A stretch of DNA of 64,000 nucleotides from an uncultured Candidatus Saccharibacteria bacterium (GCA_964404925.1 CAYOLW010000002.1:38995-102994); one strand, 5' to 3'; shown: positions 14,270 to 47,504, counted from the stretch's first letter. The notes: generated from the sequence alone by a model not told the origin. Translations and numbers: made by a program.

Positions 14270-15280
14270 ATGAAAAAAATATATCAAAAAATGTTTGTGT
14301 TTGCGGTGGTCGCTTTGGGTTTGCTGTTTGGATACAGTGCTCATGCTATGACCCCAACTTTGTCTCTATCTAGCAATAACAATAACTATGTTACTGTAAC
14401 GGTAAACGGGGATTCAAATTCCAGCGTCTACCTGTATTACAACCTGTCCTACGGTAATCAAAATACATACCTTGGCACCACCAACGGTTATGGATATTTC
14501 TCAACTACCTTAGAACAAAATAGCTACAACATGACTTCTGGGTCAATGGTGTACGTCACAGTGAACGGACAATCATCTCAGACTTATGTTTGGCCAACCA
14601 ATTACAATAACTGCAGTAATTGTTATACAACTTCAAATAGTACACCTTTGACTATTTCAAGTTTGACCTTGCCAGTCGGATCTAGTGCTGTTTTGAATTC
14701 TACCAATGGTCAGAGTATGACTGTTAACAGTAATTCCAACGGCAGTGTGGTTACAACCTCTGGTTCATTAGGTGGCGGTATCTTGCCAGCTGGTTGCACC
14801 GGTGGACAGTATAGCTACATCAATGGTCAGCCTTGCTACACTAACTACAATTACAACACTAGTTACAACAGTGGAACTCTACAGTTAAATGCGATATCTG
14901 TCGGTACTTCGAATTTGACCATCTGTTCTAATTACAACAATTACAACACTGGTTACAACAATAATTGTATGAATCTCACAGTAACCGTAACCGGAGCTTC
15001 GTTGGCTTATAACAATAACTACAACTATACCAACACTGGTGCAGTACTAGGTGCTTGTTACTTTAACTCAACATTAAGATTCGGAATGACTGGTTCTGAT
15101 GTGTTGTGCTTGCAGTCAGCATTGCAGACACTAGGCTACTTGCCAAGCGGTTATACTAGCCAAGTTTTCGACTCAACCACACTCAGTGCTGTGACTTCTT
15201 TCCAGCGTGCTCGTGGATTATTCGCTGATGGAATAGTAGGTAGAAACACCAGGAATCAACTGCTAAATTACTCTTACTAA
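14270..15280 (+). CDS. secreted Asn/Tyr/Thr-rich protein with C-terminal peptidoglycan-binding domain
   Basis: Signal peptide MKKIYQKMFVFAVVALGLLFGYSAHA, NYN-type low-complexity repeats, and a C-terminal PG_binding_1-like GMTGSDVLCLQSALQTLGY...ADGIVG. Confidence 0.7.
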   Translation: MKKIYQKMFVFAVVALGLLFGYSAHAMTPTLSLSSNNNNYVTVTVNGDSNSSVYLYYNLSYGNQNTYLGTTNGYGYFSTTLEQNSYNMTSGSMVYVTVNGQSSQTYVWPTNYNNCSNCYTTSNSTPLTISSLTLPVGSSAVLNSTNGQSMTVNSNSNGSVVTTSGSLGGGILPAGCTGGQYSYINGQPCYTNYNYNTSYNSGTLQLNAISVGTSNLTICSNYNNYNTGYNNNCMNLTVTVTGASLAYNNNYNYTNTGAVLGACYFNSTLRFGMTGSDVLCLQSALQTLGYLPSGYTSQVFDSTTLSAVTSFQRARGLFADGIVGRNTRNQLLNYSY

Positions 15281-15298
15281 TACGTTTGTAAATAGGCT

Positions 15299-15332
15299 AA
15301 AAAGTGATAGGATTAACCCTATCACTTTTTTG
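15299..15332 (+). terminator. rho-independent terminator
   Basis: AAAAGTGATAGG-attaac-CCTATCACTTTTTT. Confidence 0.75.
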
Positions 15333-15349
15333 TTTATAGTATTTTTTTT

Positions 15350-15436
15350 GGAGATGTGGCTGAGTGGTTGAAGGCACCGGTTTCGAAAACCGGCATTGGG
15401 GTAACTCAATCGAGAGTTCAAATCTCTCCGTCTCCG
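15350..15436 (+). tRNA. tRNA-Ser (anticodon CGA), type II with long variable arm
   Basis: GGAGATGTGGCTGAGTGGTTGAAGGCACCGGTTTCGAAAACCGG...GAGAGTTCAAATCTCTCCGTCTCCG with anticodon loop TTCGAAA. Confidence 0.8.
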
Positions 15437-15454
15437 CTGTGATATAATTTACTA

Positions 15455-16390
15455 GTGAAAAAATTTTTCAATAATTTATTCTGGTTGTTTGTGCTTGTTT
15501 TCTTGGTGTATTATTTTAAGGATACTTTGTCTGCTGGATATACTAAAGTCCAAAGACAATATTTCCCATGTACTGACACTATTTATTATTCTCTGGGTGA
15601 ATTTGATACTAAATTCGGCTTAAGCCAAGAAGAATTTTTGAAATACTTAAACGAAGCTGCTAAAAAATGGAATGAAGCATCTGGCCGGGAGTTACTAGCT
15701 TATTCAGAAAATAGTGATTTTAAAGTAGACCTGGTATACGACAAACGCCAAGCAGTTACTGATGTGTTGGATGACATTGGTGGAGGATTGGACAAAAACA
15801 AGACAGTTTATAATGAACTGAAGGAAAAATATAATGCTGGTATGACTCTGTACAAGATTTCTAAAGCTACATTCGAGAAAGACTGGGTGAGTTTTGCTCA
15901 AAAGAACTCTGAGTATAATAAAAAAGTCCAAGCTGTGAATGCTTCCGGCGGGGCAAGTCCAGAAGAATATTATGCTTTGACCGCTGAAAGGGAGAATCTG
16001 AATACAGAAGAATTAAAGTTGAAAAACATTGAGGACTCGTTAAACAAGTCGGTGGCGTCTGTGAACAAACTAGCCCAAGAGCTCAATACTTTAGCCCAAG
16101 AACTTAACCTTGACGTAACACGATACAACGCCATAGGTGATATGCAGGATGATGAATTCGAGGAGGGTAGATACTATAGAGAAGGTATATCAGAGGGCAT
16201 AGAGATATATCAGTTTGATGATAGGATAAAATTAGAGAGAGTTCTGGCCCATGAGTTTGGGCATGCATTAGGCGTAGAGCATGTGGACGATAAAGAGTCG
16301 ATCATGTATTTCTTGAATACTTCAGGCAATACAGAATTAACAGATTCAGACAAATCTGCTTTGTCGACAATCTGCCATTTAGAAAATTAA
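15455..16390 (+). CDS. membrane-anchored zinc metalloprotease, metzincin/matrixin-like
   Basis: N-terminal TM helix, then HEFGHALGVEH (HExxHxxGxxH) followed by a Met-turn candidate SIMYF. Confidence 0.7.
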   Translation: MKKFFNNLFWLFVLVFLVYYFKDTLSAGYTKVQRQYFPCTDTIYYSLGEFDTKFGLSQEEFLKYLNEAAKKWNEASGRELLAYSENSDFKVDLVYDKRQAVTDVLDDIGGGLDKNKTVYNELKEKYNAGMTLYKISKATFEKDWVSFAQKNSEYNKKVQAVNASGGASPEEYYALTAERENLNTEELKLKNIEDSLNKSVASVNKLAQELNTLAQELNLDVTRYNAIGDMQDDEFEEGRYYREGISEGIEIYQFDDRIKLERVLAHEFGHALGVEHVDDKESIMYFLNTSGNTELTDSDKSALSTICHLEN

Positions 16391-17560: not shown

Positions 17561-17983
17561 TTAAGCTGGCAGATTCTCGGGGTCAAGATTAACCGCCGTC
17601 ATTTGAATACGATACATCAGGTCATCGTCGATAGGGCCACCGGAAATGACGCAACTTGAACAACAGATGTTGCCAAGCACAATTGGTTGTCCGAATTTTT
17701 TAGAGAAAAAGTTCTGCAAAAAAGTTCGAGCAGTTACATCTCCGACTACATCATGTACCTGGGCTGCGAGTTCGTCTGTGTCAGTTATAGCATGTTCGCA
17801 GTAATAGTTACCAGGGGCCACTTTCTGTACCGCTTGATTAAATGAGTGTACGGTTCCGTTAACAAAAGCCGTAACCATTCGCTCCAGTTCAGGAAGTACG
17901 TTTGGCAAGTGGGTTTGAAGTCCTTGAAGGAAGCCACCATTATGGTTCCATACAAGTTTTGCAGTTGTGCAATTCATAATCAA
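17561..17983 (-). CDS. Cys-containing hypothetical protein (CCSSC motif)
   Basis: 140 aa with no assignable family. Co-directional with and downstream of the ParA-like ATPase gene. Confidence 0.5.
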   Translation of the reverse strand: MIMNCTTAKLVWNHNGGFLQGLQTHLPNVLPELERMVTAFVNGTVHSFNQAVQKVAPGNYYCEHAITDTDELAAQVHDVVGDVTARTFLQNFFSKKFGQPIVLGNICCSSCVISGGPIDDDLMYRIQMTAVNLDPENLPA

Positions 17984-18076
17984 TTTGTTTTACAATTGTG
18001 AAAAGAACTAAGTTATTCGTGATAAACAAAAACTTGAAACTAGTTCAAGTTTGGTTATCATACTGCAGCCAATTCT

Positions 18077-18952
18077 TTAGCTGCAGGGAGATAACAAAAC
18101 TTTATCCTTACCTTCGTCGTAATCTCTTTGTTTTTTGAATTTTTCTACCGTGCGGGCAAATCTGTCTCCTTGTGTTTTAGACTTTAACTTGTTCACCAAT
18201 CGTCCTAATGTTTCTTGCCAGTCTGCTATCATTATCCCGGGTTCACGCATAATGCTTTTATTAATAGGGAAGTAAAAGACCTCATCTTGCCCAAGTGCCT
18301 CTTGGCAGAATTTAACGTCTTCCTCGTCTGTTATTTTATTTAATACGAAGACATATGGTACTTGATAAAAATCTAAAATTTTGGATATTTGTTTTGCTGT
18401 TTTAGTTCCATGGAGTGAAGCATCTGTCACTATGGCACATACATCTACTCCACTAATTATGCCCGTTGATGCACCGTCTGCGCCGGCTTTTTCATCGAGG
18501 ACTACATACTCATTCTCTGAGAGTTCAAGTAATGGCAGATATACCTTAAGTGGGGCGGATAGGGAATGACTGCAGGCCTTGCCATATAGGACGTCGTCGT
18601 TTTGTGGACCGGCTGCGAGTGCGTATAAACCGTCGGAGAGTTTTGTTATGTGTTGTCCAGTAAAGTCATCGATTTTATCGAGAGTAAAACAAAACCTTTT
18701 TTCTATTGAAGTTAAATCAATTTTTTTATACTGAACATCAGAAGCGATACCCAAATACTCAAAAAGTTCTTGCTTTGCATTTCCTAAATACATCATCTCT
18801 GGCAGGGATCCACGATTCAGGTTATAGATAAAATCTATATTGTGGTCACCATCAATAGCCAAAACATCATTTTTTTGTGCTAAAAAAAGCGCTATCTGGG
18901 TAGAGAGGGTAGACTTACCGACTCCGCCTTTTCCTAATACTCCTATAATCAT
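18077..18952 (-). CDS. ParA/MinD/CooC-family P-loop ATPase
   Basis: Deviant Walker A GVLGKGGVGKSTLS at the N-terminus; 291 aa. Confidence 0.7.
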   Translation of the reverse strand: MIIGVLGKGGVGKSTLSTQIALFLAQKNDVLAIDGDHNIDFIYNLNRGSLPEMMYLGNAKQELFEYLGIASDVQYKKIDLTSIEKRFCFTLDKIDDFTGQHITKLSDGLYALAAGPQNDDVLYGKACSHSLSAPLKVYLPLLELSENEYVVLDEKAGADGASTGIISGVDVCAIVTDASLHGTKTAKQISKILDFYQVPYVFVLNKITDEEDVKFCQEALGQDEVFYFPINKSIMREPGIMIADWQETLGRLVNKLKSKTQGDRFARTVEKFKKQRDYDEGKDKVLLSPCS

Positions 18953-18970
18953 AATTTATATTAAATATTT

Positions 18971-19086: not shown

Positions 19087-19518
19087 ATGAAGTTTGATGC
19101 AAAAAAAGCCGAAGAGTTACTAGAAACATTTGCCCTCAAGAAGACAAAGCCGAGGATTTCTTTGCTTAATTTGTTGCTCAAAGCAAGTTCTCCTTTGTCT
19201 GCTAATTCTATATTCAAAAAACTTGCCAATGATAATCCTGACAAAGTGACGATCTATCGCACACTGGATGCCTTAGAAGAAAGTGGTGTTATAAAAAAAG
19301 TTCACACTGGAGAAAGGGAAGCTAAATACGAGATCAACAACAGCGCTGATGATCATCACCATATAATCTGCTTAAAATGTAAAAAGATTGTTGATTTCAG
19401 TGGCTGTGATGCCGATGGTTTAATTAAAAAGGCCTTAGCTCAAACAAAAGAATTCAAAAATATCACCCACCATTCTTTCGATTTGTTTGGTATTTGCTTG
19501 AAATGTGGAGATAAATAG
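19087..19518 (+). CDS. fur: Fur family transcriptional regulator (Fur/Zur/PerR-like)
   Basis: 143 aa: DNA-binding winged helix, HHHIICLKCKK...CLKCG metal-site motifs. Confidence 0.8.
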   Translation: MKFDAKKAEELLETFALKKTKPRISLLNLLLKASSPLSANSIFKKLANDNPDKVTIYRTLDALEESGVIKKVHTGEREAKYEINNSADDHHHIICLKCKKIVDFSGCDADGLIKKALAQTKEFKNITHHSFDLFGICLKCGDK

Positions 19519-19533
19519 TTTTTCTATATTAGA

Positions 19534-19740: not shown

Positions 19741-19813
19741 TATTAATAATTTTTATATTTGATGTTGTAAAATTTACTTGTTGTTTATTTAATTAGTTGT
19801 ATACTAATAATAG

Positions 19814-22063
19814 ATGTCAAATCAATCAATACCTCAAAAAGTATTTGATGCCGAAGTGAATCAAATTTGCGAGCTAGCTCCTGGTGTGCGCAAAATTACT
19901 CTAAAAATTCAGGAACCCTTTGTTTTTCAAGAAGCCCAATATATATGGTTGGAGCTTGTTTGTAATCCAGCTGATCCAAAAGGTAATCGACGAGCTTTTT
20001 CTATTTTTAATCAAAACAACAAAGACAATATGATTGAAATTGTTGTGCGAGTGAGTGTTAGTTTGTATAAAAAAAAATTATTTAGTTTAAAAATTGGGGA
20101 CAAGGTATTGATTCACGGTCCTTTTGGTAGTACTTTCAAGTTGGACAATATTGAAACACAACCTTGCCCAACTAAAATAGTTTTTATTGCTGGTGGAGTA
20201 GGCATCTCTGTTTTTTGGCCTACTTTGCGAAAAATATCACAAGATAAAATACCAATCTTGTGCCATTTGGTTTATTTAAACAAAGATAGAAAGTCAACTC
20301 CTTTTCTAGTTGAATTAGAAGAGTTTAAAAAACAAAATTCTTTTTTTAATTATAATATTGATTTCGGCTATTTTAATGTCGATGATTTATTAAAAATAAA
20401 TTTTTCTTTGGACGTAGATGTGGAGTGGTGGATTTCGGGTCCGCAGGGGATGGTAAATCATGTTTTTGGTGAATTAATTAAACAAAAGTTTTCTAAAAGA
20501 AAAATGCGATTTGAAAATTATTATCCCAACGACCCTAACTCTTTGACTTTTGATAAAATTAATCAATTACTTGAATCTACTGAAAGTAATATCTTTGTTC
20601 AAGCTATTCAAAATTCAACTAACCATACGGTTATAACCGATCCGGATGGCAAAATTTTGTTTGCTAACAAAGCTACTTTAAATATCACTCAATTTTCAGC
20701 TGATGAATTAATTGGACAAACTCCTAGAATTTGGGGTGGAATGATGGATGTAGATTTTTATAAATCTTTTTGGGGGAAGATTAAATCTGGTCAACGTTTT
20801 CAGGGTGAAGTTTTAAATCGTAGAAAATCTGGTCAATATTATAATGCAATTGCACACATTAATCCTATTTTAAATCACAATAAAGATATTGTTGGTTATA
20901 TTGGCACCGAAGAAGATGTCAGTTATATTCGAGAACAGGAAAAGCAGGCTACTTTGTATAAAAATCGTTTAGAGATGGCAACTCAATCTGCTAATTTGGG
21001 GGTTTGGGAGTGGAATTTGATAAAAAAGGAAATTGTTTGGAACGATAATATGTATCAAATATATGGTTTAATGAAAGATTCTTTTGAATTAACCGATAAT
21101 AATTGGCGTAATTGCATACATGTTGACGATGTAGAGATGCGAGATAAAAATATAAATGCGTTGATTGAAAAAAAAGAGTCTGTTCCTATTGATTTTCGTA
21201 TAAATTTAAAAAACGGTAAAATTCGTTATATTCGTTCTTATGCTTTATGTGAAAAAAATAGTAATAATCAAATAGAGAAGTTGATTGGTGTTAATTTAGA
21301 TATCACTAGAGAGAGGGAAGTTGATAAAGTCAAAACGGAGTTTGTCTCGTTGGCTTCACACCAATTACGTACACCATTATCAATTATCAATTGGTATACA
21401 GAAACTTTGTTAAGTAAAAAGATTGGTAGTATTAATACTAATCAAGAAAAATATTTGTCCGAAATATATAAAAATAGTCAAAAAATGACTAGTTTATTGA
21501 ATGCCTTACTAGATATTTCTCGCTTAGATTTAGGCACTCTTGTTGTTGAAACGAAACAAATCGATATTTGTATTCTTATACAAGAATGTTTAAAGGATTT
21601 GCAATATATCTTTTTATCTAAAGATATTCATCTTGTAGAAAAATACGAAATAAAAAAATTTATCTGCCTACTAGATGAAAATATTTTTCGTATTATTGTG
21701 CAAAATATTTTATCTAATGCTGTAAAATATTCAAAAAATAATAGTAAAATTTTAGTTAAAATCAAAAAAAATAATCCCGGTGAAATCTTGGGTGGTCGGA
21801 AGATAAACTCTAAAAGTATTTCAATTACCGTTGAAGATCATGGTATCGGTATTGCTAAAAAAGATGAACAAAAGGTTTTTTCTAAGCTTTTCAGAGCAGA
21901 AAATGCAAAAAAATATTCAACCGAAGGAACTGGCTTGGGTTTGTATTTAGTTAAATCAGTGGTGGAACATTCTGGTGGAATGGTCTGGTTTGAATCTACG
22001 GAGGGATTAGGAACAATTTTTTATATTGTTTATCCAGAAACAGGAATGCGATCGATAAAATAA
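19814..22063 (+). CDS. sensor histidine kinase with N-terminal ferredoxin-NADP-reductase-like FAD/NAD(P)-binding module, two PAS domains, HisKA and HATPase_c
   Basis: FNR-type motifs RAFSI (RxYS), GPFG, FIAGGVGISVFWP, ISGPQGM. PAS region follows. H-box FVSLASHQLRTPLS; G-boxes DHGIGI and GTGLGL. Confidence 0.75.
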   Translation: MSNQSIPQKVFDAEVNQICELAPGVRKITLKIQEPFVFQEAQYIWLELVCNPADPKGNRRAFSIFNQNNKDNMIEIVVRVSVSLYKKKLFSLKIGDKVLIHGPFGSTFKLDNIETQPCPTKIVFIAGGVGISVFWPTLRKISQDKIPILCHLVYLNKDRKSTPFLVELEEFKKQNSFFNYNIDFGYFNVDDLLKINFSLDVDVEWWISGPQGMVNHVFGELIKQKFSKRKMRFENYYPNDPNSLTFDKINQLLESTESNIFVQAIQNSTNHTVITDPDGKILFANKATLNITQFSADELIGQTPRIWGGMMDVDFYKSFWGKIKSGQRFQGEVLNRRKSGQYYNAIAHINPILNHNKDIVGYIGTEEDVSYIREQEKQATLYKNRLEMATQSANLGVWEWNLIKKEIVWNDNMYQIYGLMKDSFELTDNNWRNCIHVDDVEMRDKNINALIEKKESVPIDFRINLKNGKIRYIRSYALCEKNSNNQIEKLIGVNLDITREREVDKVKTEFVSLASHQLRTPLSIINWYTETLLSKKIGSINTNQEKYLSEIYKNSQKMTSLLNALLDISRLDLGTLVVETKQIDICILIQECLKDLQYIFLSKDIHLVEKYEIKKFICLLDENIFRIIVQNILSNAVKYSKNNSKILVKIKKNNPGEILGGRKINSKSISITVEDHGIGIAKKDEQKVFSKLFRAENAKKYSTEGTGLGLYLVKSVVEHSGGMVWFESTEGLGTIFYIVYPETGMRSIK

Positions 22064-22103
22064 TTTAGGTCGAGATTATAAATTTTTAAAATTTAAATAA
22101 AAT

Positions 22104-22475
22104 ATGAACAAAAAAGTTTTGGTTATTGAAGATGAAACAAGTTTAAGGTTTTTATTGTGCGAACGTTTAAGTTCTGAAAATTTTCAAATTTTTTCAGCCA
22201 GTAATGGGGTGGATGGTCTGTCTTTGGCTTTACAGGAAAAACCGAACCTAATTTTATTAGACATAATGATGCCAGGTATAGACGGTAACCATGTTTTAGA
22301 AGAGATCCGAAAAAATGATTGGGGTAAAAAAGCTCATGTTATAATATTAACTAATTTAAACACTAGTGAAGAGTTGGCCAAAGCTTTAGAACTAGAAGCT
22401 TTTGAATTTTATGTTAAATCTAATATCAAGATAGAAGATTTAATGCAAAAGATTATTCAATACTTAAAAAAATAA
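22104..22475 (+). CDS. single-domain response regulator (CheY-like receiver)
   Basis: VLVIEDE...LLDIMMPGIDG...K; 123 aa, no output domain. Confidence 0.8.
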   Translation: MNKKVLVIEDETSLRFLLCERLSSENFQIFSASNGVDGLSLALQEKPNLILLDIMMPGIDGNHVLEEIRKNDWGKKAHVIILTNLNTSEELAKALELEAFEFYVKSNIKIEDLMQKIIQYLKK

Positions 22476-22477
22476 CT

Positions 22478-23404
22478 TTATTTTGTGTGCAAATTTAAAT
22501 AAATGTCTTCTAGTGCGCGGACTGCGTCGCCAGCTGCGATGTTGTTCTGGTGATATAGTACATTCGTACAGTCACCAGCTGCCCAGATACCTGGTGTTTC
22601 AGTTTTACCTGTCCATGGATCAATCTTGATTTGGCCCATTTCATTTAGTGGAACTATGTCTTTGGCGTAGCCTGTGTTTGGAATTTGGCCTATCTCGACA
22701 AAGATTCCTGAAACTTTTAAATCATTCATTTCACCAGTTTCTTTATTTTTAAATTTGATTCCATCGACAAATTTTTCTCCGGTTACTTCCAGTATATCTA
22801 CGTTCTTGATTGCTTTAAATTTAGGATTTTTAGATAGTTTTTCTACTGTCACTTCATCAGCTCTGAATGTGTCGCTGCGGTGTAGTAAAGTCACAGATTT
22901 ACAATATGCCAGTAGTTGTGCAGCCGACTCGAATCCAGCATTACCCCCACCAATAACCACCACATCCATATCAGAAAAAAGAGGTCCATCACAAGATGCA
23001 CAGTAGGTGAGTCCTTTGTGTTCCAGCCTGTCGGCACCTATGGCTTCGAGCTTTCTGCGTCCTGAACCAGAAGAAATAAGCACGGTCTTGGATTCGTGTG
23101 TTTTGCCACCTTCGGTTGTGATTATAAAAGTCTCGTTTTCTTTTTTTATAGCGACGACTTTTTCACCTTCGGCTACTTGTAGATCTTGGCCGACGTTTGC
23201 CATTACATGTTGTTTAAAATTAGTCGCTAGCTCGTGTCCTGGAATTTCAACAGATCCAATCCAGTTATAAATCTTTTCAGAAACTATACTTTGTCCACCC
23301 CATTCAGCTAATATTAGTAGTGTTTTTAATCTTTTGCGGGCAGCATACACAGCCGCAGCAGTGCCAGCCGGTCCACCGCCAATAATTATTAAATCGTATA
23401 TCAT
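22478..23404 (-). CDS. trxB: thioredoxin-disulfide reductase
   Basis: FAD motif IIGGGPAGTAAAVYAAR, redox-active CASCDG, NADPH motif VVIGGGNAG. Confidence 0.9.
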   Translation of the reverse strand: MIYDLIIIGGGPAGTAAAVYAARKRLKTLLILAEWGGQSIVSEKIYNWIGSVEIPGHELATNFKQHVMANVGQDLQVAEGEKVVAIKKENETFIITTEGGKTHESKTVLISSGSGRRKLEAIGADRLEHKGLTYCASCDGPLFSDMDVVVIGGGNAGFESAAQLLAYCKSVTLLHRSDTFRADEVTVEKLSKNPKFKAIKNVDILEVTGEKFVDGIKFKNKETGEMNDLKVSGIFVEIGQIPNTGYAKDIVPLNEMGQIKIDPWTGKTETPGIWAAGDCTNVLYHQNNIAAGDAVRALEDIYLNLHTK

Positions 23405-35623: not shown

Positions 35624-36520
35624 ATGAAAAAGTATATAAATTATCTATTATTTTTATTGGTAATATTAGGGATAATATATTTCTCTCTCAATTCATTTTT
35701 ACTGATAAATATTTTAAATATAAATTTACGATCTGTATATGACTTTATATATGACTGGCAACAGTTAATTGGTGCATTTTTAGGTGCATTAACTCCAATA
35801 GCACTTTTCTTGATAAATGAAAAATATCAAAAGAAACAAAAAAAGAAAGCACATCTTTTGCTGTTAGAAAAAAGTATTATTTTAGCAATAAACAATTTGA
35901 GCGATATAGACAATATGCTCCATCGTTTCAATAGTAATCAACTTACAGTAGCAAAACAAAGAATAGCGAATGAGTCATTAAAAAATCAATATTCTGTTGG
36001 GCAGATTTTCATACCCCTTACAGCTACCTTTTCTTTTTCTGATGAGTTAATGAATGAAACCACAGACAGTAATTACATAGAAAATCTCAAAATGGATGTT
36101 TATGCCACATCAAAAGAACTGCCTATTTTGTTACAAGATCTTAACAGGCAATTTGATAGAAACATAAACCTCAATACCCAAATATCAATAGCAAAATTAA
36201 ATGACCCTAAAATGCAAAATACAGTATTTTTATCTAATATTACTGACTTTGAGAAGTATTTATATGCCGAAGTCTTTGGACATAACATTCCAGTATATTT
36301 AAGAAAGCTCGTGACATTACTTATTGCTTTAAAGAAAATGAATAGCTTAGGGTTAAAAAAATGGAGAGCGACATTTCCTTTTAAACAACCATATACACAA
36401 GAAATTGATGAAAAAATATCAGCATATTTCTCCGAAGAGATAAATAATAAAATAAAAGAATTAGATAAAAGTTTCAAATCAAAACTTTTATTAGTTGAAG
36501 AGAAAAGTAGTATAGTTTAG
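35624..36520 (+). CDS. hypothetical membrane protein (two N-terminal TM helices)
   Basis: 298 aa, very AT-rich, no recognisable family. Confidence 0.5.
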   Translation: MKKYINYLLFLLVILGIIYFSLNSFLLINILNINLRSVYDFIYDWQQLIGAFLGALTPIALFLINEKYQKKQKKKAHLLLLEKSIILAINNLSDIDNMLHRFNSNQLTVAKQRIANESLKNQYSVGQIFIPLTATFSFSDELMNETTDSNYIENLKMDVYATSKELPILLQDLNRQFDRNINLNTQISIAKLNDPKMQNTVFLSNITDFEKYLYAEVFGHNIPVYLRKLVTLLIALKKMNSLGLKKWRATFPFKQPYTQEIDEKISAYFSEEINNKIKELDKSFKSKLLLVEEKSSIV

Positions 36521-36526
36521 GTTTTT

Positions 36527-37270
36527 ATGAAAAAAATAAACAAAACAAATACAGACATTGTGGCAATTAAAGAGCAAAATCAAGTCTCTGTCCTTAGAGA
36601 TCCAAATTTATTAAAACCATTTTTGGAACAACCAAAACTAAAGATTGCAGAATTTATTACAGGAGCTTTATCTAATGGTCTTTCAGATTGGACAAAGATA
36701 GGCGGTAGGTTGGTTCAAGGAGTAATAGTTGGAAATTTAATGACACAAGTTGGAAGAGAGATAAATAAACTCATAGATGAAGGAAAAATTAAAGAAAACT
36801 ATGCTGAAACAAAATATGGATTTAAATCATTAGAAGAATTATTGAAATTTATTGATAGTGAAGCACCCGACGAAGATAGATTTAATGCTGTGAAAGCGAT
36901 GTTTTTTGCTTTAAATAGCGTTGACGTGAAAAATTTAGGTGAAGAAATATTGCGTTATCAGTTATTTCATGTATCAACCAAATTGAGTTCATCTCAATTA
37001 TTAACTATGAGAGCTGCATATGAGTTTAAGAAAAATCATACACAACATAGTAGCGCTGAGGCGTGGTTGCAAGATATTTCAAAACAAATAGGTCATAACT
37101 CTAAAGGTTTAGTAGAAAATGATGAAACTGTTTTAGAACAGGAAAAATTAATTACAGGCAGGACATATAATGACAGAAGTGGAGTTAGGGGTCACAATGG
37201 CAGATTGAGTGATTTTGGAATTTCATTAGTTGAATATATATTAAAGTATGAAAATTATATTGAAGAATAA
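36527..37270 (+). CDS. hypothetical soluble protein, operon partner of the upstream membrane protein
   Basis: 247 aa, no recognisable motif; starts 7 nt after the upstream stop. Confidence 0.5.
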   Translation: MKKINKTNTDIVAIKEQNQVSVLRDPNLLKPFLEQPKLKIAEFITGALSNGLSDWTKIGGRLVQGVIVGNLMTQVGREINKLIDEGKIKENYAETKYGFKSLEELLKFIDSEAPDEDRFNAVKAMFFALNSVDVKNLGEEILRYQLFHVSTKLSSSQLLTMRAAYEFKKNHTQHSSAEAWLQDISKQIGHNSKGLVENDETVLEQEKLITGRTYNDRSGVRGHNGRLSDFGISLVEYILKYENYIEE

Positions 37271-37397
37271 AATAAGAGTACTCAAAAGTAAAAACTGGTT
37301 TGAAAACAGCGATACATCGTATACATAAGTTTTAAAAGCACAAAAGACTCTTTACTTGATTGAATACTTGGTTCCAATCTCATATAATTAAACTCAC

Positions 37398-37916
37398 ATG
37401 AACTTTATTGTTATAAACGGCCCATCTTGTGTAGGAAAAAGCACAACAATCAACCATTTAATGGAAACCAAGGACGGATATTTCCATTTGTCTTATGACA
37501 AAATTAAGAGAAATTTCTCTAGATATGAATCAGGCAAATATGTTAATGAAATCTTCAGCCTTTTGTTCGTAATGGAGAAAAACATTTGCGAACAAGGTTT
37601 AGATATTTTGACCGATATAGCTGTATGGCGGGAGAATAGAGAAAAAATAATTGAAATCGCAAAGCAGTATAACTATCAAATATTTGAAATTAATTTAGAA
37701 GCCCCATTTGATGTTGTGCTAGAAAGATTTAGAAATCGAGTAAACGAGTCCATAATAAATCCAGAGAAGAAACTCGCCAATACATCTGAAGTAAGACTAA
37801 AAGAAATGTTTGATATATACGAAGAAGGGAAGAATAAAAATGCCTTAACGTTGCGGACAGATCAATTAACTCCTCAAGAAATAAAAGAGCAGATTTTGGA
37901 TTATATAAATAGATAA
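37398..37916 (+). CDS. P-loop kinase-like protein (AAA_33/chloramphenicol-phosphotransferase-like fold)
   Basis: N-terminal Walker A INGPSCVGKST; 172 aa. Confidence 0.55.
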   Translation: MNFIVINGPSCVGKSTTINHLMETKDGYFHLSYDKIKRNFSRYESGKYVNEIFSLLFVMEKNICEQGLDILTDIAVWRENREKIIEIAKQYNYQIFEINLEAPFDVVLERFRNRVNESIINPEKKLANTSEVRLKEMFDIYEEGKNKNALTLRTDQLTPQEIKEQILDYINR

Positions 37917-38311
37917 TAAATACAAATATTCTATTTATCGCCATAAGTTCTAATCACACCTTTCAGCTATTGACTTTTCTATTATTTGTGTTAATCTGCA
38001 GTTAAATTTTAGCTCGTTGAAATAAGAAAGTGACGGGTTGGGGAATGATTCTAGCCTCTAATTATTTAGGGTTTTGAATCATTCACCTTAACTCTTCACT
38101 TAAACAAAACAAAAAAATCATGGAAGGAAAAACCATCCTTTGGATTATAGGAGGCCTCGTCCTGTATTTACTTGTTGGCTACATAAATGCATTGAGAGTC
38201 AGAAACTCTGCTCGGGGACTTTCAGCCACTCTTCAAATACCAATGAAACACGACAACTTAGACAAGACCATAATTTTTTTCTGGATTTTCAAAATGTTCA
38301 AATTTTAAACC

Positions 38312-39547: not shown

Positions 39548-39575
39548 GTTTACTGATAAATAGTAATTTTTGCTA

Positions 39576-40011
39576 TAATACTGGCACAGATGCCGACCAA
39601 GAAAATTAAGAAAATATTAGTGGTAGAAGACGAGCGCCCAATGGCACATGCGCTTGATTTAAAGCTGACCCATGAAGGGTTCACTGTGACCGTAGCTTAT
39701 AACGGAGAAGAAGCACTAAAAGCTATGGAGGATACTGAATTTGATTTGGTTCTGCTTGATATCATGATGCCGAAGCTAGATGGATTTGGAGTCTTAGAAC
39801 AGATGAAGATTCTCAATTACAAATGGCCGGCGATAGTTTTGTCTAATCTGAGTCAGAGTGAAGACGAGAAAAGAGCTCGCGATTTGGGTGCAAATAAATT
39901 TTTTGTTAAATCCAATACTCCAATAATGAGAATTGTGGACTACGCAAAAGAAATTTTACGCGGGTAGTGTTATACTATTTAACAGATGAATATTGATGAG
40001 CAAAAATTAAT
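39576..40011 (+). repeat. upstream copy of the duplicated block (regulator promoter/5' end, then regulator 3' end plus pilB first 8 codons)
   Basis: 39576-39635 and 39862-40011 recur at 41765-41965. The 3' ~147 nt appear identical; the 5' ~60 nt carry 3 mismatches. Confidence 0.8.
39590..39967 (+). CDS. single-domain response regulator (CheY-like receiver)
   Basis: ILVVEDE...LLDIMMPKLDG...K; a paralogue of the receiver at 22104. Confidence 0.8.
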   Translation: MPTKKIKKILVVEDERPMAHALDLKLTHEGFTVTVAYNGEEALKAMEDTEFDLVLLDIMMPKLDGFGVLEQMKILNYKWPAIVLSNLSQSEDEKRARDLGANKFFVKSNTPIMRIVDYAKEILRG

Positions 40012-40016
40012 TTAAA
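39987..40016 (+). pseudogene. 8-codon pilB 5' stub (MNIDEQKL then I and a stop)
   Basis: Identical to the first 25 nt of the full pilB at 41941, then diverges into the insert. Confidence 0.5.
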
Positions 40017-40019
40017 TAT

Positions 40020-41054
40020 ATGGAAATCAATCAAGAAATAACAGAAGTAGAGCAGGGTGTTAAAGAGTATATAAAAAAAGATAATGGTTTTACTCTTATA
40101 GAGATAATCATGGTCATTGTTGTAATAGCGATTCTGGCAAGTTTGTCACTTGTGGTTTTTTCTGAAGCAAGGAAAAAAGCAAGAGACACACAACGTATAA
40201 CTGCTATTCAAAATATTAATAAAGCAATTCAAGTATATATCACTGATTATGGTCTAGCACCAGATCTTGGTGATCCTGCGTGCCTTGAAGTCCTTAACCC
40301 TAATCCATCTTGTGTTGCTGATATTATGAATCATCCAAATGAATGGACAGATTTAGCAAAAGCGCTAGAGCCATACATCCATATTTTGCCCACCGATCCT
40401 TGTGTGAATTGTGTAAGTGTTTTTACTAATGTTGCTTATGCACAAACAGGTTTAGATTATAACTTTGTTTATAAAGCACCAGCAGGTATAGCATATGATT
40501 TACAGCAAGCAGGTCTATCGTTAGATTTTTTGGATAGTAGTACATATCGAATATATGCTGATAAACTTGAGAAATTTGATGGAGCATTTGGGTATGGTTA
40601 TAATTTACATGGTTTTTTTGCTTTAAATAATGATGCTTCTGTATTAGATGAGTTATGTCCTTTAAGTTCAAAAGAGTATTGTGATTTTTGGCCTGATTTA
40701 GTTAAAAAAAATACCGAAATTTGCAATTCGGGCGATTTGGAAACATGCATTATGTTGGCGCGTCACGGATTGTTTGATGGATCAAATGTTTTTAAATGTG
40801 TATTTAATACAGAAGAACAATGCGCTGAATGGGATTCTTTTCTATATAAAAACATAACAATATGTAATGAGGGAGAAAGGTCTAGTTGTGATTTGTTAGC
40901 AAAATATGATTTATACCCACAGATTACAGAATGTCCTTTAAAGGAACGTGATTGCCTTGCTTGGTTTGAAGAAATACAAAATAATTTATTATTATGTGAT
41001 TTTAAAGAAGAGACAGCTTGTAATTGGTTGGATAAAAATAATGTTTTTAAATAA
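40020..41054 (+). CDS. prepilin-type N-terminal domain protein with Cys-rich tandem repeats
   Basis: Class III signal GFTLIEIIMVIVVIAILAS after a 23 aa leader. The C-terminal half carries repeated units of the type xIC-N-xGx...C. Confidence 0.6.
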   Translation: MEINQEITEVEQGVKEYIKKDNGFTLIEIIMVIVVIAILASLSLVVFSEARKKARDTQRITAIQNINKAIQVYITDYGLAPDLGDPACLEVLNPNPSCVADIMNHPNEWTDLAKALEPYIHILPTDPCVNCVSVFTNVAYAQTGLDYNFVYKAPAGIAYDLQQAGLSLDFLDSSTYRIYADKLEKFDGAFGYGYNLHGFFALNNDASVLDELCPLSSKEYCDFWPDLVKKNTEICNSGDLETCIMLARHGLFDGSNVFKCVFNTEEQCAEWDSFLYKNITICNEGERSSCDLLAKYDLYPQITECPLKERDCLAWFEEIQNNLLLCDFKEETACNWLDKNNVFK

Positions 41055-41764
41055 TACTGGTTTTTGGGCAATTGCTTCTGCAAGTAGTTGTAAAAAATTT
41101 TGAATTAGAAAAGGACGCTTTTTTATTTAATGGGTCTATCAATTGAGGAAGTATAGCCATGTATTCTTGATGAGCTTTAGTCGTGTCTAAAATTACTCCC
41201 TTATCTGCTGAACTTTTTACTTGGACTAGATATAGAGTATGAACTTGATTATTGTCTTCTACTATCCAAGGAAAGAAAGGTATCTTTGGCACTTTCTGTA
41301 CCACTTAATATCATTTTTACTTCTGCTTGTATTTTTTCAGAATTACTACCTAATTCTTCAGCTAAAACCTACTTAATAATAAAAGAAATGTTATTAATTG
41401 GTATATTATACTGAGTCACTATTCTTAGTAATGCATTTTGTAATCTTGCTTCTGGTAAGTAGAGAACTCTTCTTTTTAATTCTTCTCCTTAATAAACTCC
41501 AACTACTCGTCTTTGGGTGGCTGATATATCTCTTTCTGAACTTTCTCTTAGATAAATTTTAATTAAGTTTTTGATTTTATCATTTGCTGGACCAGCATGT
41601 ATCTCGTTTTTAACAGGAACAGTCGCTGTAAAAGCAGGTTGTCCTCTGTCTCAACCCTTCTCAAAAATCAATTTAAAAAAATTATTTTCTGCCCCCCATA
41701 ACTAAACTGTAGCATTTTGGCTTTATATTTTAATAGAACTTTTTTTAAGTTTAAGTACGGGTTA
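41055..41764 (-). pseudogene. decayed gene of unknown identity
   Basis: Minus-strand translation gives three or more long fragments joined only across stops and frameshifts (for example DRGQPAFTATVPVKNEIHAGPANDKIKNLIKIYLRESSERDISATQRRVVGVY). The only intact ORF is the 85 aa piece at 41047..41304. Confidence 0.35.
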
Positions 41765-41965
41765 TAATACTGGCACATATGCCGACCAAGAAAACTAAGA
41801 AAATATTAGTGGTAGAATACGAGAAAAGAGCTCGCGATTTGGGTGCAAATAAATTTTTTGTTAAATCCAATACTCCAATAATGAGAATTGTGGACTACGC
41901 AAAAGAAATTTTACGCGGGTAGTGTTATACTATTTAACAGATGAATATTGATGAGCAAAAATTAA
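41765..41965 (+). repeat. downstream copy of the duplicated block (regulator remnant plus the true pilB start)
   Basis: Direct repeat of 39576-40011 with a ~225 nt internal deletion whose ends sit at a 9-nt microhomology (GAAGACGAG/GAATACGAG). Confidence 0.8.
41779..41922 (+). pseudogene. in-frame internally deleted response-regulator remnant (47 codons: MPTKKTKKILVVEYEKRARDLGANKFFVKSNTPIMRIVDYAKEILRG)
   Basis: The 5' 16 codons and 3' 31 codons of the regulator at 39590 are fused; the phosphoacceptor region is missing. Confidence 0.6.
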
Positions 41966-43599: not shown

Positions 43600-43607
43600 C
43601 CAATCGA

Positions 43608-44702
43608 ATGCAAAAAATTTCAATTCAAAAAATTAATGATTTTTTTGCTGATATGGGTTTTGTAAAAGAGAAAGAATACTTCTTGACCAATTTGAGCATG
43701 CTGCTTGATGCAGGAATGAATGTGTCTGATGCTGTGGCTACTTTGCGCAAAGAATCTAAATCTCCCTCAATGCGTAAATTGCTTGCGAATGTTGGTGAAG
43801 ATATAAGTAACGGTTTTTCTATCTCGAATACTTTAAAAAGATCTGGTTTCACTACTGATCACACAGATTCGCTCATTAAAATAGGTGAGGAGTCAGGTAA
43901 GCTGTCACAAAATCTAAAAATTATCGCCGTTGGAGAAGAAAAGAACAGAGTTTTCCGTTCTAAAATTCGTTCGGCGATGCTTTATCCAATGTTTGTTTTT
44001 GGAGTGACTATTATGGTGGGGATAGTGGTGATTTGGTATATATTACCCAGGCTTGCAACTGTATTTTCTCAAATGAATATTGAGTTGCCGGCTTTGACTC
44101 GAGCTTTAATTGCAACCGGTAATTTCTTGGCAAAATACGGAACTTTTTTTGTGCCGACGGTGCTTTTGCTTTTAAGTTCGATTTTCTATTTTCTATTTGT
44201 ATTTCATAAAACTAAACATATTGGGCAAAGGTTTTTATTATCTTCGCCTGGTGTCGGAGAAATATTAAGACAAATAGAGATTGCTCATATGGGTTATATA
44301 TTAGGTACCTTGCTCGACGCTGGTATTCCAGTTGTTTCTTCACTTAATTCTCTTGCTGAATCCACCAGTTCCCGAACACATCAAAATTTTTATAAAAAAA
44401 TTAAAAACAGTATTGCTGATGGCAATTCTTTTGCCAAGACATTCGATTCTTTGTCAGAGACAAATAAATTCATTCCACCAACAGTTGAACGTCTAATTGT
44501 ATCCGGAGAACAATCGGGTAAATTGTCTGAAACATTGCTGAAGGTTGGTATTCATTATGAAGCAAAGATTGATGATACAACCAAGAATCTGTCAGTTATT
44601 TTTGAACCAATCTTGTTGGTTATTGTATGGGTTGGGGTGGTGTCTGTGGCGCTTGCTGTTATTTTGCCTATTTATAGTTTGATTGGTAATTTCAATCGCT
44701 AA
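43608..44702 (+). CDS. pilC: type IV pilus platform protein PilC (GspF family)
   Basis: 364 aa; two T2SSF repeats with three TM helices. Confidence 0.85.
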   Translation: MQKISIQKINDFFADMGFVKEKEYFLTNLSMLLDAGMNVSDAVATLRKESKSPSMRKLLANVGEDISNGFSISNTLKRSGFTTDHTDSLIKIGEESGKLSQNLKIIAVGEEKNRVFRSKIRSAMLYPMFVFGVTIMVGIVVIWYILPRLATVFSQMNIELPALTRALIATGNFLAKYGTFFVPTVLLLLSSIFYFLFVFHKTKHIGQRFLLSSPGVGEILRQIEIAHMGYILGTLLDAGIPVVSSLNSLAESTSSRTHQNFYKKIKNSIADGNSFAKTFDSLSETNKFIPPTVERLIVSGEQSGKLSETLLKVGIHYEAKIDDTTKNLSVIFEPILLVIVWVGVVSVALAVILPIYSLIGNFNR

Positions 44703-44703
44703 T

Positions 44704-46551: not shown

Positions 46552-46552
46552 A

Positions 46553-47476: not shown

Positions 47477-47504
47477 GTCGTATGAAGTTAAAAGAATAAA
47501 AAAT

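Follow-up and report, generated by a model that had tools for sequence, protein, structure and literature searches.

A soluble histidine kinase with an N-terminal ferredoxin-NADP-reductase-like module: a putative self-contained redox sensor from a Patescibacteria-centred family

Positions 19814..22063 (+ strand) of a 64,000-nucleotide stretch of DNA from an uncultured Candidatus Saccharibacteria bacterium, hereafter the window, encode a soluble sensor kinase of 749 aa composed of an N-terminal ferredoxin-NADP-reductase (FNR)-like module, two PAS domains (PAS1 and PAS2), HisKA and HATPase_c, as delimited by the ORF, Pfam domains and TM prediction. The explanation that we favour, with a probability of roughly one half and a mechanism that we infer throughout, is that its product is a soluble redox sensor kinase, self-contained and holding two flavins. 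The gene is not singular: FNR-PAS sensors form a populated family centred on the Patescibacteria, which occurs in fused and in split form. The design, a kinase with a predicted flavin-PAS fused to a reductase-like module, is undescribed but widespread. In line with the preliminary description of this DNA, which did not recall the domain combination as a described sensor class, no publication describing the FNR-PAS-kinase architecture was found in the literature searched, and databases label family members no more specifically than 'PAS domain-containing protein' or 'hypothetical protein'.

Results

The kinase gene is one ORF without internal stop or frameshift, as had been remarked before, and a gap of 40 nt separates its end from a 123-aa ORF at 22104..22475. 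Besides the N-terminal module, Pfam assigned a PAS domain to aa 261-370, PAS_3 to aa 407-494, HisKA to aa 507-573 (E 6e-14) and HATPase_c to aa 621-742 (E 3e-23). No TM segment was predicted in the 749 aa of this soluble protein, which agrees with the cytoplasmic location claimed earlier. Likewise, the claimed fusion of an FNR-like N-terminus to two PAS domains, HisKA and HATPase_c was borne out by Pfam, NCBIfam, AF2 and Foldseek, and the stand-alone receiver said to follow the kinase corresponds to the 123-aa ORF, for which Response_reg is the sole Pfam match. The cassette formed by the kinase and this receiver (RR1) is atypical in composition, with a GC content of 0.30 versus 0.37 and a GC3 of 0.22. 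A promoter and terminator scan of positions 18900-22700 yielded counts not above those of shuffled sequence. By look-up, the exact kinase protein was absent from public assemblies, in which the LysRS of the window is present.

By profile and by model, residues 1-239 are a ferredoxin-NADP-reductase fold. The module comprises an FAD-binding beta-barrel subdomain (aa ~9-106; 19838..20131, +), delimited by Pfam FAD_binding_6 and by AF2 strands at 10-106, and an NAD(P)H-binding Rossmann subdomain (aa ~121-238; 20174..20527, +), delimited by Pfam NAD_binding_1, NCBIfam BenC and Foldseek. In the profile searches, the proposed membership of the N-terminus in the FNR family drew support from FAD_binding_6 and the BenC alignment, but only one of the two expected Pfam domains was recovered above its cut-off: FAD_binding_6 scored 26.1 bits on aa 15-106 (cut-off 21.1), while NAD_binding_1, at 20.9 bits on aa 124-176, fell narrowly below the cut-off of 22. 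Two relatives at other loci (L019 and L022) clear NAD_binding_1 with 47.5 and 37.1 bits, respectively. Among the NCBIfam profiles, aa 8-239 matched BenC in its reductase portion (E 3e-13, profile positions 102-333) as well as about 20 other FNR-family reductases. The AF2 model of the module (pLDDT 89) consists of a six-stranded beta-barrel FAD domain and a Rossmann-like NAD(P)H domain, and Foldseek matched it with a probability of 1.0 and TM values of 0.7-0.8 (TMt up to 0.82) to the DH domain of SpNOX (top match), flavohaemoglobin, NqrF, b5R, GcoB and BenC. A plant-type [2Fe-2S] domain is absent from the kinase, which starts at the FAD barrel in both the BenC alignment and the AF2 model; Pfam gave no Ferric_reduct match, and there is no TM di-haem domain.

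The FNR module runs directly into PAS1. The aromatic residue Y237, at the C-terminal end of the module, is internal rather than terminal and is joined to PAS1 by a linker and PAS N-cap helices (aa 239-270; 20528..20623, +), which an AF2 model of the FNR-PAS1 di-domain places at 246-254 and 260-266 with a pLDDT of 82-96. The di-domain model as a whole has a pLDDT of 92.7 and a pTM of 0.89, with all five models above 91. Among 104 family members, taken from clusters built at 50% identity and used for all conservation counts below, the spacing from P238 to H271 has a mode of 31 aa, found in 35. Judging from the model, the interface between both domains appears to be fixed, and we count this in favour of the two-flavin reading. 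Foldseek returned no solved structure that contains FNR and PAS together (TMq <=0.52, with the FNR part alone aligning).

PAS1 (aa 271-368; 20624..20917, +) is predicted to be an FAD-binding PAS of the NifL/MmoS type, on the basis of PDB sequence matches and conserved determinants. Compared by sequence with the PDB, it matches MmoS (3ewk, E 1e-21) and NifL (2gj3/9qq6, E 8e-13) best, followed by LOV domains and Aer and nothing else. The primary determinant of FAD-PAS domains is a Trp in F-alpha, joined by an Asn in cluster 4, which holds NifL and MmoS (Xing et al. 2023, PMC10468136); further pocket residues were taken from work on Aer (PMC9668731). The key residues of PAS1 are T275, R305, Y316, W320, N335, K338 and E366. 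W320, present in 104/104 members, aligns with the Trp of 'DMWRTI' in MmoS and 'ALWGRL' in NifL, and N335, located in 'NRRKSG' and present in 101/104, aligns with MmoS N164 (N85 in Aer), which contacts the isoalloxazine ring. The Trp and Asn that define the FAD-PAS clade are common to MmoS, NifL and PAS1. Y316 is likewise found in 104/104 members, and W320, N335 and R305 occur together in 101/104. The Trp criterion discriminates within MmoS itself, where the FAD-binding PAS-A carries W and the non-binding PAS-B carries Q at the same column. However, PAS1 lacks the His and Arg close to flavin N5 (H132/R195 in MmoS, H53/R115 in Aer), which are defining for the Aer and AerC clusters and optional in cluster 4. 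It has P304 (98/104) and E366 (92/104) instead, and NifL, with Glu and His, differs at both positions as well. The chemistry of the PAS1 flavin, if it holds any, would therefore differ.

Given the flavin-binding PAS1 predicted here, the FNR module more likely serves as a reductase internal to the sensor than as the only place where sensing occurs. The converse reading, which is that of the preliminary description and which we consider rather unlikely, takes the FNR module as the only cofactor site, so that Y237 would move with the redox state of its FAD or with binding of NAD(P)H/NAD(P)+, and PAS1 and PAS2 would be cofactor-less transducers. Nicotinamide can stack on the flavin of FNR enzymes only once the terminal aromatic has swung away, and in the AF2 model Y237 and P238 continue straight into the well-ordered N-cap helices of PAS1; such a swing and the missing N5-proximal residues of PAS1 would suit a sensor with a single flavin. 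Yet PAS1 is better conserved than the FNR module in the family alignment and keeps the FAD-PAS determinants in 101/104 members, its nearest solved relatives are all flavin-binding PAS domains, and an invariant pocket of T275, R305, Y316, W320, N335 and K338 is hard to reconcile with an empty transducer.

Conservation among the 104 members indicates purifying selection on the FNR cofactor motifs: R60 is found in 100, F62 in 97 and S63 in 101 members, GP.G in about 103, G128 and G209 in 103 each, E234 in 94 and Y237 in 79. In the window protein, the R-x-[YF]-S motif reads R60-A-F62-S63; Phe in place of the usual Tyr also occurs in the flavin reductase Fre. The preliminary description had credited the module with the full FNR motif set. 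RAFSI (aa 60-64), GPFG (102-105), FIAGGVGISVFWP (124-136) and ISGPQGM (207-213) are indeed present, and the Rossmann subdomain retains G127-G128-V-G130 and S208-G209-P210 within AGGVGISV(133)F and S-G209-P-Q, followed by F233-E-N-Y-Y237-P. Two motifs deviate, however. The Pro of GGxGxxP, previously read as P136, lies three residues upstream of that position, where 79/104 members have P133 (consensus GGVGIAPF) and the window protein, as the only one, has Val. Moreover, the second FAD motif, S-G-[YF]-K-x-[TS]-L by consensus, reads S83-L84-Y-K-K-K88-L in the window copy; G84 is found in 80/104 and T/S88 in 86/104 members, and with L84 and K88 the copy departs from the G-x-x-[ST]-type FAD pyrophosphate motif after beta5. 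Both positions vary elsewhere too, with D and K in one relative (P0027) and D and G in another (P0062). Because of these three off-consensus cofactor positions and the NAD_binding_1 score below the cut-off, binding of FAD or NAD(P)H by the window protein may be weak or absent.

G84L, T/S88K and P133V could mark a degenerating module or non-catalytic scaffold on an otherwise ordinary flavin-PAS or ligand-PAS kinase. The low NAD_binding_1 score, the atypical composition of the cassette and its position away from the pilus locus described below, where the kinase HK2 occupies the slot of the sensor, would fit such decay. We nevertheless regard this as unlikely: R60-x-F62-S63, GPFG, GGVG, SGPQ and E234..Y237 are intact in the window copy, the AF2 confidence equals that of any functional FNR fold, the ORF is full-length with zero frameshifts, and positions 84 and 88 vary in P0027 and P0062 as well.

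An exhaustive search yielded 290 cluster representatives at E<=1e-30, and the best 150 of these include 80 FNR-PAS-HK fusions and 41 FNR-PAS proteins. Nearly all named close relatives stem from Patescibacteria MAGs. The search for the same architecture in other genomes, which had been proposed earlier, was thus successful: a 749-aa relative (P0022) shares it end to end with 41% identity over aa 4-746, further end-to-end fusions are encoded at loci L006 and L011, and several relatives have identical domain order and length with 37-41% identity along the whole protein. Fused forms were found in 11 species-representative genomes. At five other loci (L001, L002, L004, L008 and L009) the same parts are split into adjacent genes for FNR-PAS, HK and RR. 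At L022, a stand-alone FNR with the C-terminus EEFSGY and a stand-alone PAS are encoded 4 nt apart; this PAS bears the complete MmoS signature and does carry the N5-proximal His and Arg. Fusion and adjacency of the same parts argue, by Rosetta-stone logic, for functional coupling of FNR, PAS and kinase. The idea that the fusion is recent and confined to the lineage of the window was rejected, since fused forms dominate the family and the architecture is common at 37-41% identity. The kinase-less FNR-PAS proteins share a conserved C-terminal tail helix, for which no Pfam or PDB match was found.

A distant FNR-only relative, at L019, is the only one to adjoin a Ferric_reduct TM haem protein. Together with the DH domain of SpNOX as top structural match, we count this neighbour in support of the view that the FNR-PAS proteins arose from domains whose electrons go to the cofactor of a partner. 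The same kinship with NOX/FRE-type dehydrogenase domains, and the evident role of the L019 relative as part of an enzyme, could be taken to mean that the FNR module is an enzymatic output (for example an NAD(P)H oxidase or a flavin or ferric reductase) regulated by the state of PAS and kinase in a bifunctional protein. Such an arrangement is quite improbable, as the module is N-terminal and always stands directly before a sensor-type PAS (103 cases in the family alignment, with a gap of <60 aa), no haem TM, Fe-S or flavodoxin acceptor is present in the protein or conserved alongside, and FNR in split systems stays with PAS and not with an enzyme partner. That neighbouring FNR-PAS and kinase genes were misread as one through assembly or annotation might be suspected from the closest word-index relatives, which are FNR-PAS proteins of ~400 aa followed by a separate kinase, and from the window junction 'GTEEDV', where homology changes from one gene to the next, but such an artefact is ruled out by the uninterrupted frame, by fusions in 80 of the best 150 representatives and by full-length, same-order homologues at 37-41% identity in many genomes.

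PAS2 (aa 385-500; 20966..21313, +; PAS_3 type, Pfam PAS_3 at aa 407-494) is probably a transducer domain; it is homologous to the PAS_3 domain of the separate kinases in split systems, with 37% identity between aa 367-744 and the L001 kinase. It is followed by the HisKA/DHp domain (21332..21532, +), identified by Pfam and by its H box SLASHQLRTP with the phospho-acceptor H516, and by the HATPase_c catalytic domain (21674..22039, +), identified by Pfam and by the N (NILSNAVKYS), G1 (DHGIGI), F (FSKLFR) and G2 (GTGLGL) boxes. RR1 (22104..22475, +) is a stand-alone CheY-like receiver of 123 aa, in which Response_reg spans aa 5-117 with E9/D10, D53, T83 and K104 and no output domain. By their motifs, kinase and receiver are catalytically complete, and RR1 is presumed to be the phospho-acceptor of the kinase.

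In 11 of 17 related loci, phmmer synteny places the FNR-sensor genes directly next to a PilB-PilC-pilin cluster; beside pilus genes, the sensor is accompanied by one to four genes for stand-alone receivers. RR1 is 45-51% identical to receivers that follow FNR-sensor genes at the pilus-linked loci L005, L015, L004 and L002, and loci with two receivers hold two distinct types, with 24% versus 38-51% identity to RR1. In some relatives (L085 and L086) pilus genes are absent near the sensor. The window itself contains a homologous type IV pilus-like cluster (40020..47981, +; Pfam T2SSE/MshEN, T2SSF and N_methyl), which comprises a pilin-like gene, PilB, PilC and five pilin/pseudopilin genes. This locus, to which a separate kinase and receiver belong, is 20 kb away from the cassette. 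At its head stands a second stand-alone receiver, RR2 (39560..39964, +; Pfam Response_reg alone), which is 39% identical to RR1 and may belong to the FNR-sensor system. The slot behind the pilins, which holds the FNR sensor in relatives, is occupied by HK2 (47981..49807, +), an 8-TM PAS-HisKA-HATPase_c kinase according to Pfam and TM prediction and a paralogue of the FNR-kinase core, with 44% identity over DHp+CA and a near-identical H box and DHp helix 1. The adjacency in 11 of 17 loci makes type IV pili a candidate output and suggests that the FNR-PAS kinase system acts on them. Single-domain receivers are known to control type IV pili, as in the case of PilG/PilH (PMC10519157) and PixG/PixH (PMC11181946). 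A conserved oxidative-stress regulon formed by the Fur-like and TrxB-like neighbours was considered but found no support, as neither of them lies beside the system in any of 22 related loci.

Discussion

In the two-flavin reading, the N-terminal FNR-fold module would bind FAD and accept hydride from NAD(P)H, and electrons would pass from this FAD across the fixed interface to a second flavin in PAS1. O2 or another oxidant would then re-oxidise the PAS1 flavin, by analogy with NifL. With a PAS1 flavin charged by NAD(P)H and discharged by an oxidant, its redox state would report the supply of reducing equivalents against that of the oxidant. This state could pass via PAS2 and the DHp helices, thereby switching autophosphorylation of H516, from which the phosphoryl group would be transferred to D53 of RR1. 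Without an output domain, RR1 must work through protein-protein contact, and synteny in relatives points to the type IV pilus machinery as its most likely target.

The closest solved relatives of PAS1, MmoS of Methylococcus capsulatus and NifL of Azotobacter vinelandii, couple an FAD-PAS redox sensor to a histidine-kinase(-like) transmitter, and MmoS resembles the window protein in its tandem PAS domains followed by HisKA/HATPase_c. A reductase domain is missing from both, and external donors, some of them unidentified, reduce their flavin. For NifL, Macheroux et al. in 1998 reportedly found reduction by NADH only via Hmp, a catalyst with an FNR fold. NifL is not an active kinase (PMC8063818), whereas the window protein carries all kinase motifs. 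Aer, the aerotaxis receptor of E. coli, likewise employs a flavin-PAS that reports redox or energy state and steers motility via a CheY-type receiver, as proposed here. However, Aer is membrane-anchored and acts on flagella, while the window protein is soluble, has a predicted NAD(P)H-linked reductase of its own and is itself the kinase, and its family is linked by synteny to type IV pili.

ThnY of Sphingopyxis granuli is the only precedent found for an FNR-family protein that signals by its flavin redox state (PMC4814904). It has a plant-type [2Fe-2S] domain, takes electrons from a ferredoxin rather than from NAD(P)H, and has a LysR activator as its target (PMC4814904); unlike ThnY, the window protein has no Fe-S domain, has kept the NAD(P)H motifs and continues into PAS domains and a kinase. 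The same logic, an FNR-fold module that passes NAD(P)H electrons to the cofactor of a fused neighbour, is realised in diflavin reductases (CPR-type, FAD to FMN) and in SpNOX (FAD to haem). There, the acceptor is a flavodoxin or haem domain, and the product in diflavin reductases and NOX/FRE enzymes is catalytic turnover, in contrast to a PAS sensor and a phosphorylation signal in the window protein. On the output side, the single-domain receivers PilG/PilH and PixG/PixH resemble the stand-alone receivers beside sensor and pilus genes; those systems use CheA-type kinases with MCP or photoreceptor inputs, as opposed to a HisKA kinase with a proposed redox input and a pilus link that derives from the genes.

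Aer, NifL and MmoS are textbook redox sensors; in the cell, their flavin is reduced either indirectly, through the respiratory chain or quinol pool, or by a donor that is not known. In the family described here, a predicted dedicated NAD(P)H-flavin reductase is repeatedly fused to, or a neighbour of, a predicted flavin-PAS. This makes the electron source explicit and renders the whole sensor testable in one soluble polypeptide.

Patescibacteria are ultra-small, with minimal genomes and few regulators, and they generally do without respiratory chain and quinones, from which flavin-PAS sensors such as Aer usually obtain their electrons. A sensor with its own reductase makes sense in such cells, and the concentration of the family in these regulator-poor, mostly respiration-less bacteria renders it likely that it is among their principal environmental sensors. 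Type IV pili are thought to mediate their attachment to hosts, and the sensor often lies at the end of type IV pilus operons, which suggests that it controls the attachment apparatus. More tentatively, the Patescibacteria (CPR) could possess an unrecognised class of self-powered redox or oxygen sensors, a two-flavin 'comparator' in which an FNR-type reductase would constantly charge the PAS flavin from NAD(P)H and O2 would discharge it, wired via CheY-like receivers to type IV pili. If so, episymbionts without a respiratory chain might perform aerotaxis-like or redox-guided twitching, host attachment or DNA uptake, and the old question of what reduces a flavin-PAS in vivo would have a natural answer. 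The design might also offer synthetic biology a compact, genetically encodable kinase switch responsive to NAD(P)H and O2. As to its reductant, K157, R159 and K160 after beta2 hint weakly at NADPH rather than NADH as the donor of the window FNR module.

An FNR module heads a soluble histidine kinase

The sensor kinase (749 aa; 19814..22063, + strand) is encoded by a single uninterrupted ORF, followed 40 nt downstream by the ORF of the stand-alone receiver RR1 (123 aa; 22104..22475, + strand). Pfam analysis of the kinase yielded matches to FAD_binding_6 (aa 15-106; 26.1 bits, cut-off 21.1), PAS (PAS1, aa 261-370), PAS_3 (PAS2, aa 407-494), HisKA (aa 507-573), and HATPase_c (aa 621-742), while NAD_binding_1 (aa 124-176) scored 20.9 bits at a cut-off of 22. 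H516 as well as the N, G1, F, and G2 boxes are present. Response_reg is the sole Pfam match of RR1, which contains D53, T83, and K104. These matches correspond to the fusion to two PAS domains, HisKA, and HATPase_c, followed by a stand-alone receiver, that the preliminary description had put forward. In agreement with the cytoplasmic location proposed there, no TM segment was predicted in the whole protein.

The assignment of the N-terminus to the FNR family likewise holds. In NCBIfam, aa 8-239 align with the BenC reductase portion (E 3e-13), and about twenty further FNR-family reductases are matched as well, and PDB sequence matches of the FNR module comprise GcoB, NqrF, cytochrome b5 reductase, and flavohaemoglobin. 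AlphaFold modelled aa 1-239 with confidence (pLDDT 89, pTM 0.85), and Foldseek matched this model with probability 1.0 and TM 0.7-0.8 to FAD/NAD(P)H modules, namely those of flavohaemoglobin, SpNOX, NqrF, b5 reductase, GcoB, and BenC. The claim of a full FNR motif set stands in part: the four motifs quoted in its favor are found, but the Pro of GGxGxxP is replaced by V133, and the second FAD motif, with L84 and K88, is not intact. Taken together, the analysis confirms the earlier observation and lends support to its interpretation while sharpening it, with a function that we infer throughout.

The fusion recurs among Patescibacteria

When the FNR module served as query in a word-indexed search, only ten relatives emerged, most of them FNR-PAS proteins of ~400 aa without a kinase. 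At their loci, the FNR-PAS gene is followed by a PAS_3-HisKA-HATPase_c kinase and then by a stand-alone receiver, with accessory sensor genes (CHASE protein, PAS protein, hemerythrin) sometimes interposed. Upon alignment, aa 1-372 of the window kinase follow the FNR-PAS proteins, and aa 367-744 follow the C-terminal half of the separate kinases (37% identity, E 6e-79).

When 1.84 billion cluster representatives were searched exhaustively by profile, 290 of them scored E<=1e-30. The suggestion to look for the same architecture elsewhere proved fruitful, as 80 of the 150 best representatives are FNR-PAS-kinases (median length 745 aa); 41 are FNR-PAS proteins (median length 441 aa) and 29 FNR-only proteins or fragments. 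Several members share the exact domain order of the window kinase end to end at 37-41% identity, and species-representative genomes contain fused as well as split forms. On the basis of these sequences, we regard the fusion as old and recurrent. An assembly artefact, in which two ORFs would be read as one, is excluded by the end-to-end homologues and by the ORF itself, for which the absence of a frameshift or stop was confirmed.

At an identity of 30% or more to the FNR module, nearly all loci belong to MAGs of Patescibacteria (Saccharibacteria, Parcubacteria, Peribacteria, Wildermuthbacteria, Moraniibacteriota, and Colwellbacteria), together with a few TPA bins under other labels. The LysRS of the window is 100% identical to one MAG protein and 84-89% identical to that of Candidatus Pacebacteria/Paceibacterota and Nomurabacteria MAGs, from which we assign the window to a CPR genome of the Paceibacteria type.

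Database names of members are restricted to 'PAS domain-containing protein', 'PAS domain S-box-containing protein', and 'hypothetical protein'. In line with the earlier remark that the architecture was not known as a described sensor class, no description of an FNR-PAS-kinase sensor was found in full-text searches of the literature, nor, on targeted inspection, in a review on flavin redox switches from 2025. We view the family as predicted flavin-PAS two-component sensors whose built-in reductase input module is new and whose distribution is lineage-specific.

A putative two-flavin relay

We estimate a probability of roughly one half that the FNR-kinase is a two-flavin relay sensor. NAD(P)H would reduce the FAD of the FNR module, which would pass electrons to a flavin in PAS1, to be re-oxidised by O2 or another oxidant. 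The redox state of PAS1 would be conveyed via PAS2 to the DHp part and affect autophosphorylation at H516, from where the phosphoryl group would be transferred to RR1. The electron-transfer logic of the proposed FNR-PAS1 step parallels that of diflavin reductases and NOX enzymes, and the sensing logic that of MmoS, NifL, and Aer. To our knowledge, Patescibacteria generally lack a respiratory chain, the usual poiser of flavin-PAS sensors, and a two-flavin relay would therefore suit these organisms. Aer reads the flux through the ETC (PMC13059710). Among FNR-family proteins, ThnY comes nearest to being a precedent for a role in signalling; it differs in that it carries an Fe-S domain, NAD(P)H does not reduce it, and it partners a LysR activator (PMC4814904).

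PAS1, which was absent from the preliminary description as a cofactor site, is a predicted flavin-PAS. Its best solved relatives are all flavin binders, namely MmoS (E 1e-21) and NifL (E 8e-13), followed by LOV domains and Aer. FAD-PAS clusters are defined by the F-alpha Trp, to which the clusters of NifL/MmoS and of Aer add an Asn (Xing et al. 2023, PMC10468136); when aligned to the solved relatives, these correspond to W320 and N335 of PAS1. The Trp criterion separates the MmoS domains, with W in the FAD-binding PAS-A and Q at the same column in the non-binding PAS-B. W320 and Y316 are invariant (each 104/104), and W320, N335, and R305 occur together in 101 of the 104 members. Given this pocket, we deem it unlikely that the kinase is a single-flavin sensor with the FNR module as the sole cofactor site. 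Aer and MmoS have four pocket residues in common, namely T, N, and the N5-proximal pair of His and Arg (PMC9668731). PAS1 keeps the first two (T275 and N335), but contains P304 and E366 in place of the His and Arg, and its flavin chemistry may therefore be distinctive; NifL and LOV domains likewise differ at both positions.

Somewhat less probable still is a pseudo-reductase, that is, an FNR module that is non-catalytic in the window copy. The main reason to retain this idea is that the window copy is off consensus at three positions (G84 to L, T/S88 to K, and P133 to V). Cofactor-motif conservation across the family is in contrast unlike that of a decaying relic: in an alignment of 104 members, drawn from 50%-identity clusters, we counted R60 (100/104), F62 (97/104), S63 (101/104), G102, P103, and G105 (~103/104), G128 (103/104), G130 (99/104), P133 (79/104), G209 (103/104), E234 (94/104), and Y237 (79/104). 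As judged from this alignment, the FNR module is selected as a cofactor-binding module across the family.

PAS1 directly follows the FNR module in 103 representatives, and the P238-to-H271 spacing has a mode of 31 aa (35/104). The AlphaFold model of the di-domain (aa 1-385; 61-sequence alignment) is confident (pLDDT 92.7, pTM 0.89) with an ordered linker, which argues for a fixed FNR-PAS1 interface in this prediction. Foldseek retrieved no solved structure spanning both domains; its top match was SpNOX DH, the NOX dehydrogenase domain. Moreover, an FNR-only relative at locus L019 adjoins a Ferric_reduct transmembrane haem protein. The FNR module thus appears to descend from dehydrogenase domains that natively pass NAD(P)H electrons to the cofactor of a partner domain. 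A regulated enzyme, with the FNR module serving as output and not as input, is highly improbable.

Split and accessory forms in related loci

In a Colwellbacteria locus (L022), FNR and PAS are separate genes, 4 nt apart. The FNR protein (229 aa) has the canonical terminal aromatic (C-terminus ...EEFSGY*), and the stand-alone PAS protein (172 aa) the complete MmoS signature including His and Arg. The latter (L022:5599-6117) shares with kinase-less FNR-PAS proteins, including P0002, P0003, P0005, P0007-P0010, P0016-P0018, P0024, and P0026, a strongly conserved terminal helix, ...LN.xM[VI][GD]REL[KR]M[IV]ELK.EI..., which has no match in Pfam or PDB and is lacking in the window kinase. It may be a docking helix for a partner kinase.

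At L019:3849-5597 (Candidatus Wildermuthbacteria MAG), a cupredoxin-like protein, the Ferric_reduct-like TM protein (25.8 bits, just below cut-off), and the FNR-only protein (ending ...IRFENF*) are encoded in a row, an arrangement resembling a NOX/ferric-reductase-like system, split into separate genes, within a CPR genome. At L004:3438-4754, the FNR-PAS gene is separated from its dCache-HAMP-PAS kinase by genes for a double-PAS protein (293 aa) and for a hemerythrin, so that one operon holds a further sensor module of the O2/iron type; L002 and L009 have a CHASE-domain protein in this slot. In a Candidatus Lloydbacteria MAG (L086:8001-15675), the gene of an FNR-PAS-GAF-PAS-kinase precedes those of a double-domain ATPase resembling KaiC (PF06745, E 3e-91), of a MASE3 and a dCache-HAMP protein, and of two stand-alone receivers; a timer or switch of the KaiC type may thus receive redox input here.

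Type IV pili as candidate output

Of 17 related loci, 11 have the sensor genes directly beside a type IV pilus-like cluster, which encodes PilB, PilC, a pilin, and a large pseudopilin together with two small proteins. Cluster and sensor genes mostly share one strand, on which the latter are distal and followed by 1-4 stand-alone receivers. The homologous cluster of the window (40020..47981) is flanked by the stand-alone receiver RR2 (39560..39964) and the 8-TM PAS histidine kinase HK2 (47981..49807). The DHp+CA parts of HK2 and the FNR-kinase are 44% identical, with a nearly identical H-box region. The receivers of pilus-linked loci share 45-51% identity with RR1, and we therefore take the kinase-RR1 cassette, by sequence, to be the same system, relocated. 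Control of pili by single-domain receivers has precedents in PilG/PilH (PMC10519157) and PixG/PixH (PMC11181946). Since some relatives are without pilus linkage, we infer type IV pili as the output of FNR-kinase/RR1 with moderate confidence only.

The pilus-like locus of the window is complete (39560..49807): RR2 is followed by a pilin-like gene, the genes for PilB and PilC, and five pilin/pseudopilin genes, among them one with LVIVD beta-propeller repeats, and HK2 is the terminal gene, with no receiver next to it.

Composition and neighbourhood of the cassette

The kinase-RR1 cassette (19814..22475) has a GC content of 0.30, whereas the window averages 0.371; among 247 sliding windows it ranks 6th lowest, and its GC3 is 0.22-0.25. 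The best full-length relative of the kinase is only 41% identical, as against 84-89% for the housekeeping LysRS. Together, atypical GC and distant relatives suggest horizontal transfer, relocation, or rapid evolution of the cassette.

A Fur-family regulator gene (19087..19518) is located 295 nt upstream on the same strand, and a convergent gene for a thioredoxin-reductase-like flavoprotein (22478..23404) has its stop codon 2 nt from that of RR1. The redox theme of these neighbours is suggestive; neither gene is conserved beside the FNR-sensor system in relatives. Divergent from the Fur-like gene, the - strand encodes a ParA/MinD-like P-loop ATPase (291 aa) and then a Cys-rich protein of 140 aa without a Pfam match (17561..18952). 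Within 14270..16390, we noted a 336-aa secreted protein with an extreme abundance of Asn, Ser, Thr, and Tyr, whose C-terminal part reads, from its sequence, like a peptidoglycan-binding domain; its gene is followed by a tRNA (15350..15436) and by the gene of a 311-aa protein, in whose translation we read the zinc-protease motif HEFGHALGVEH, similar to that of matrixins. A second low-GC stretch (36001..38000; GC 0.300) displays a strongly positive AT skew of 0.152.
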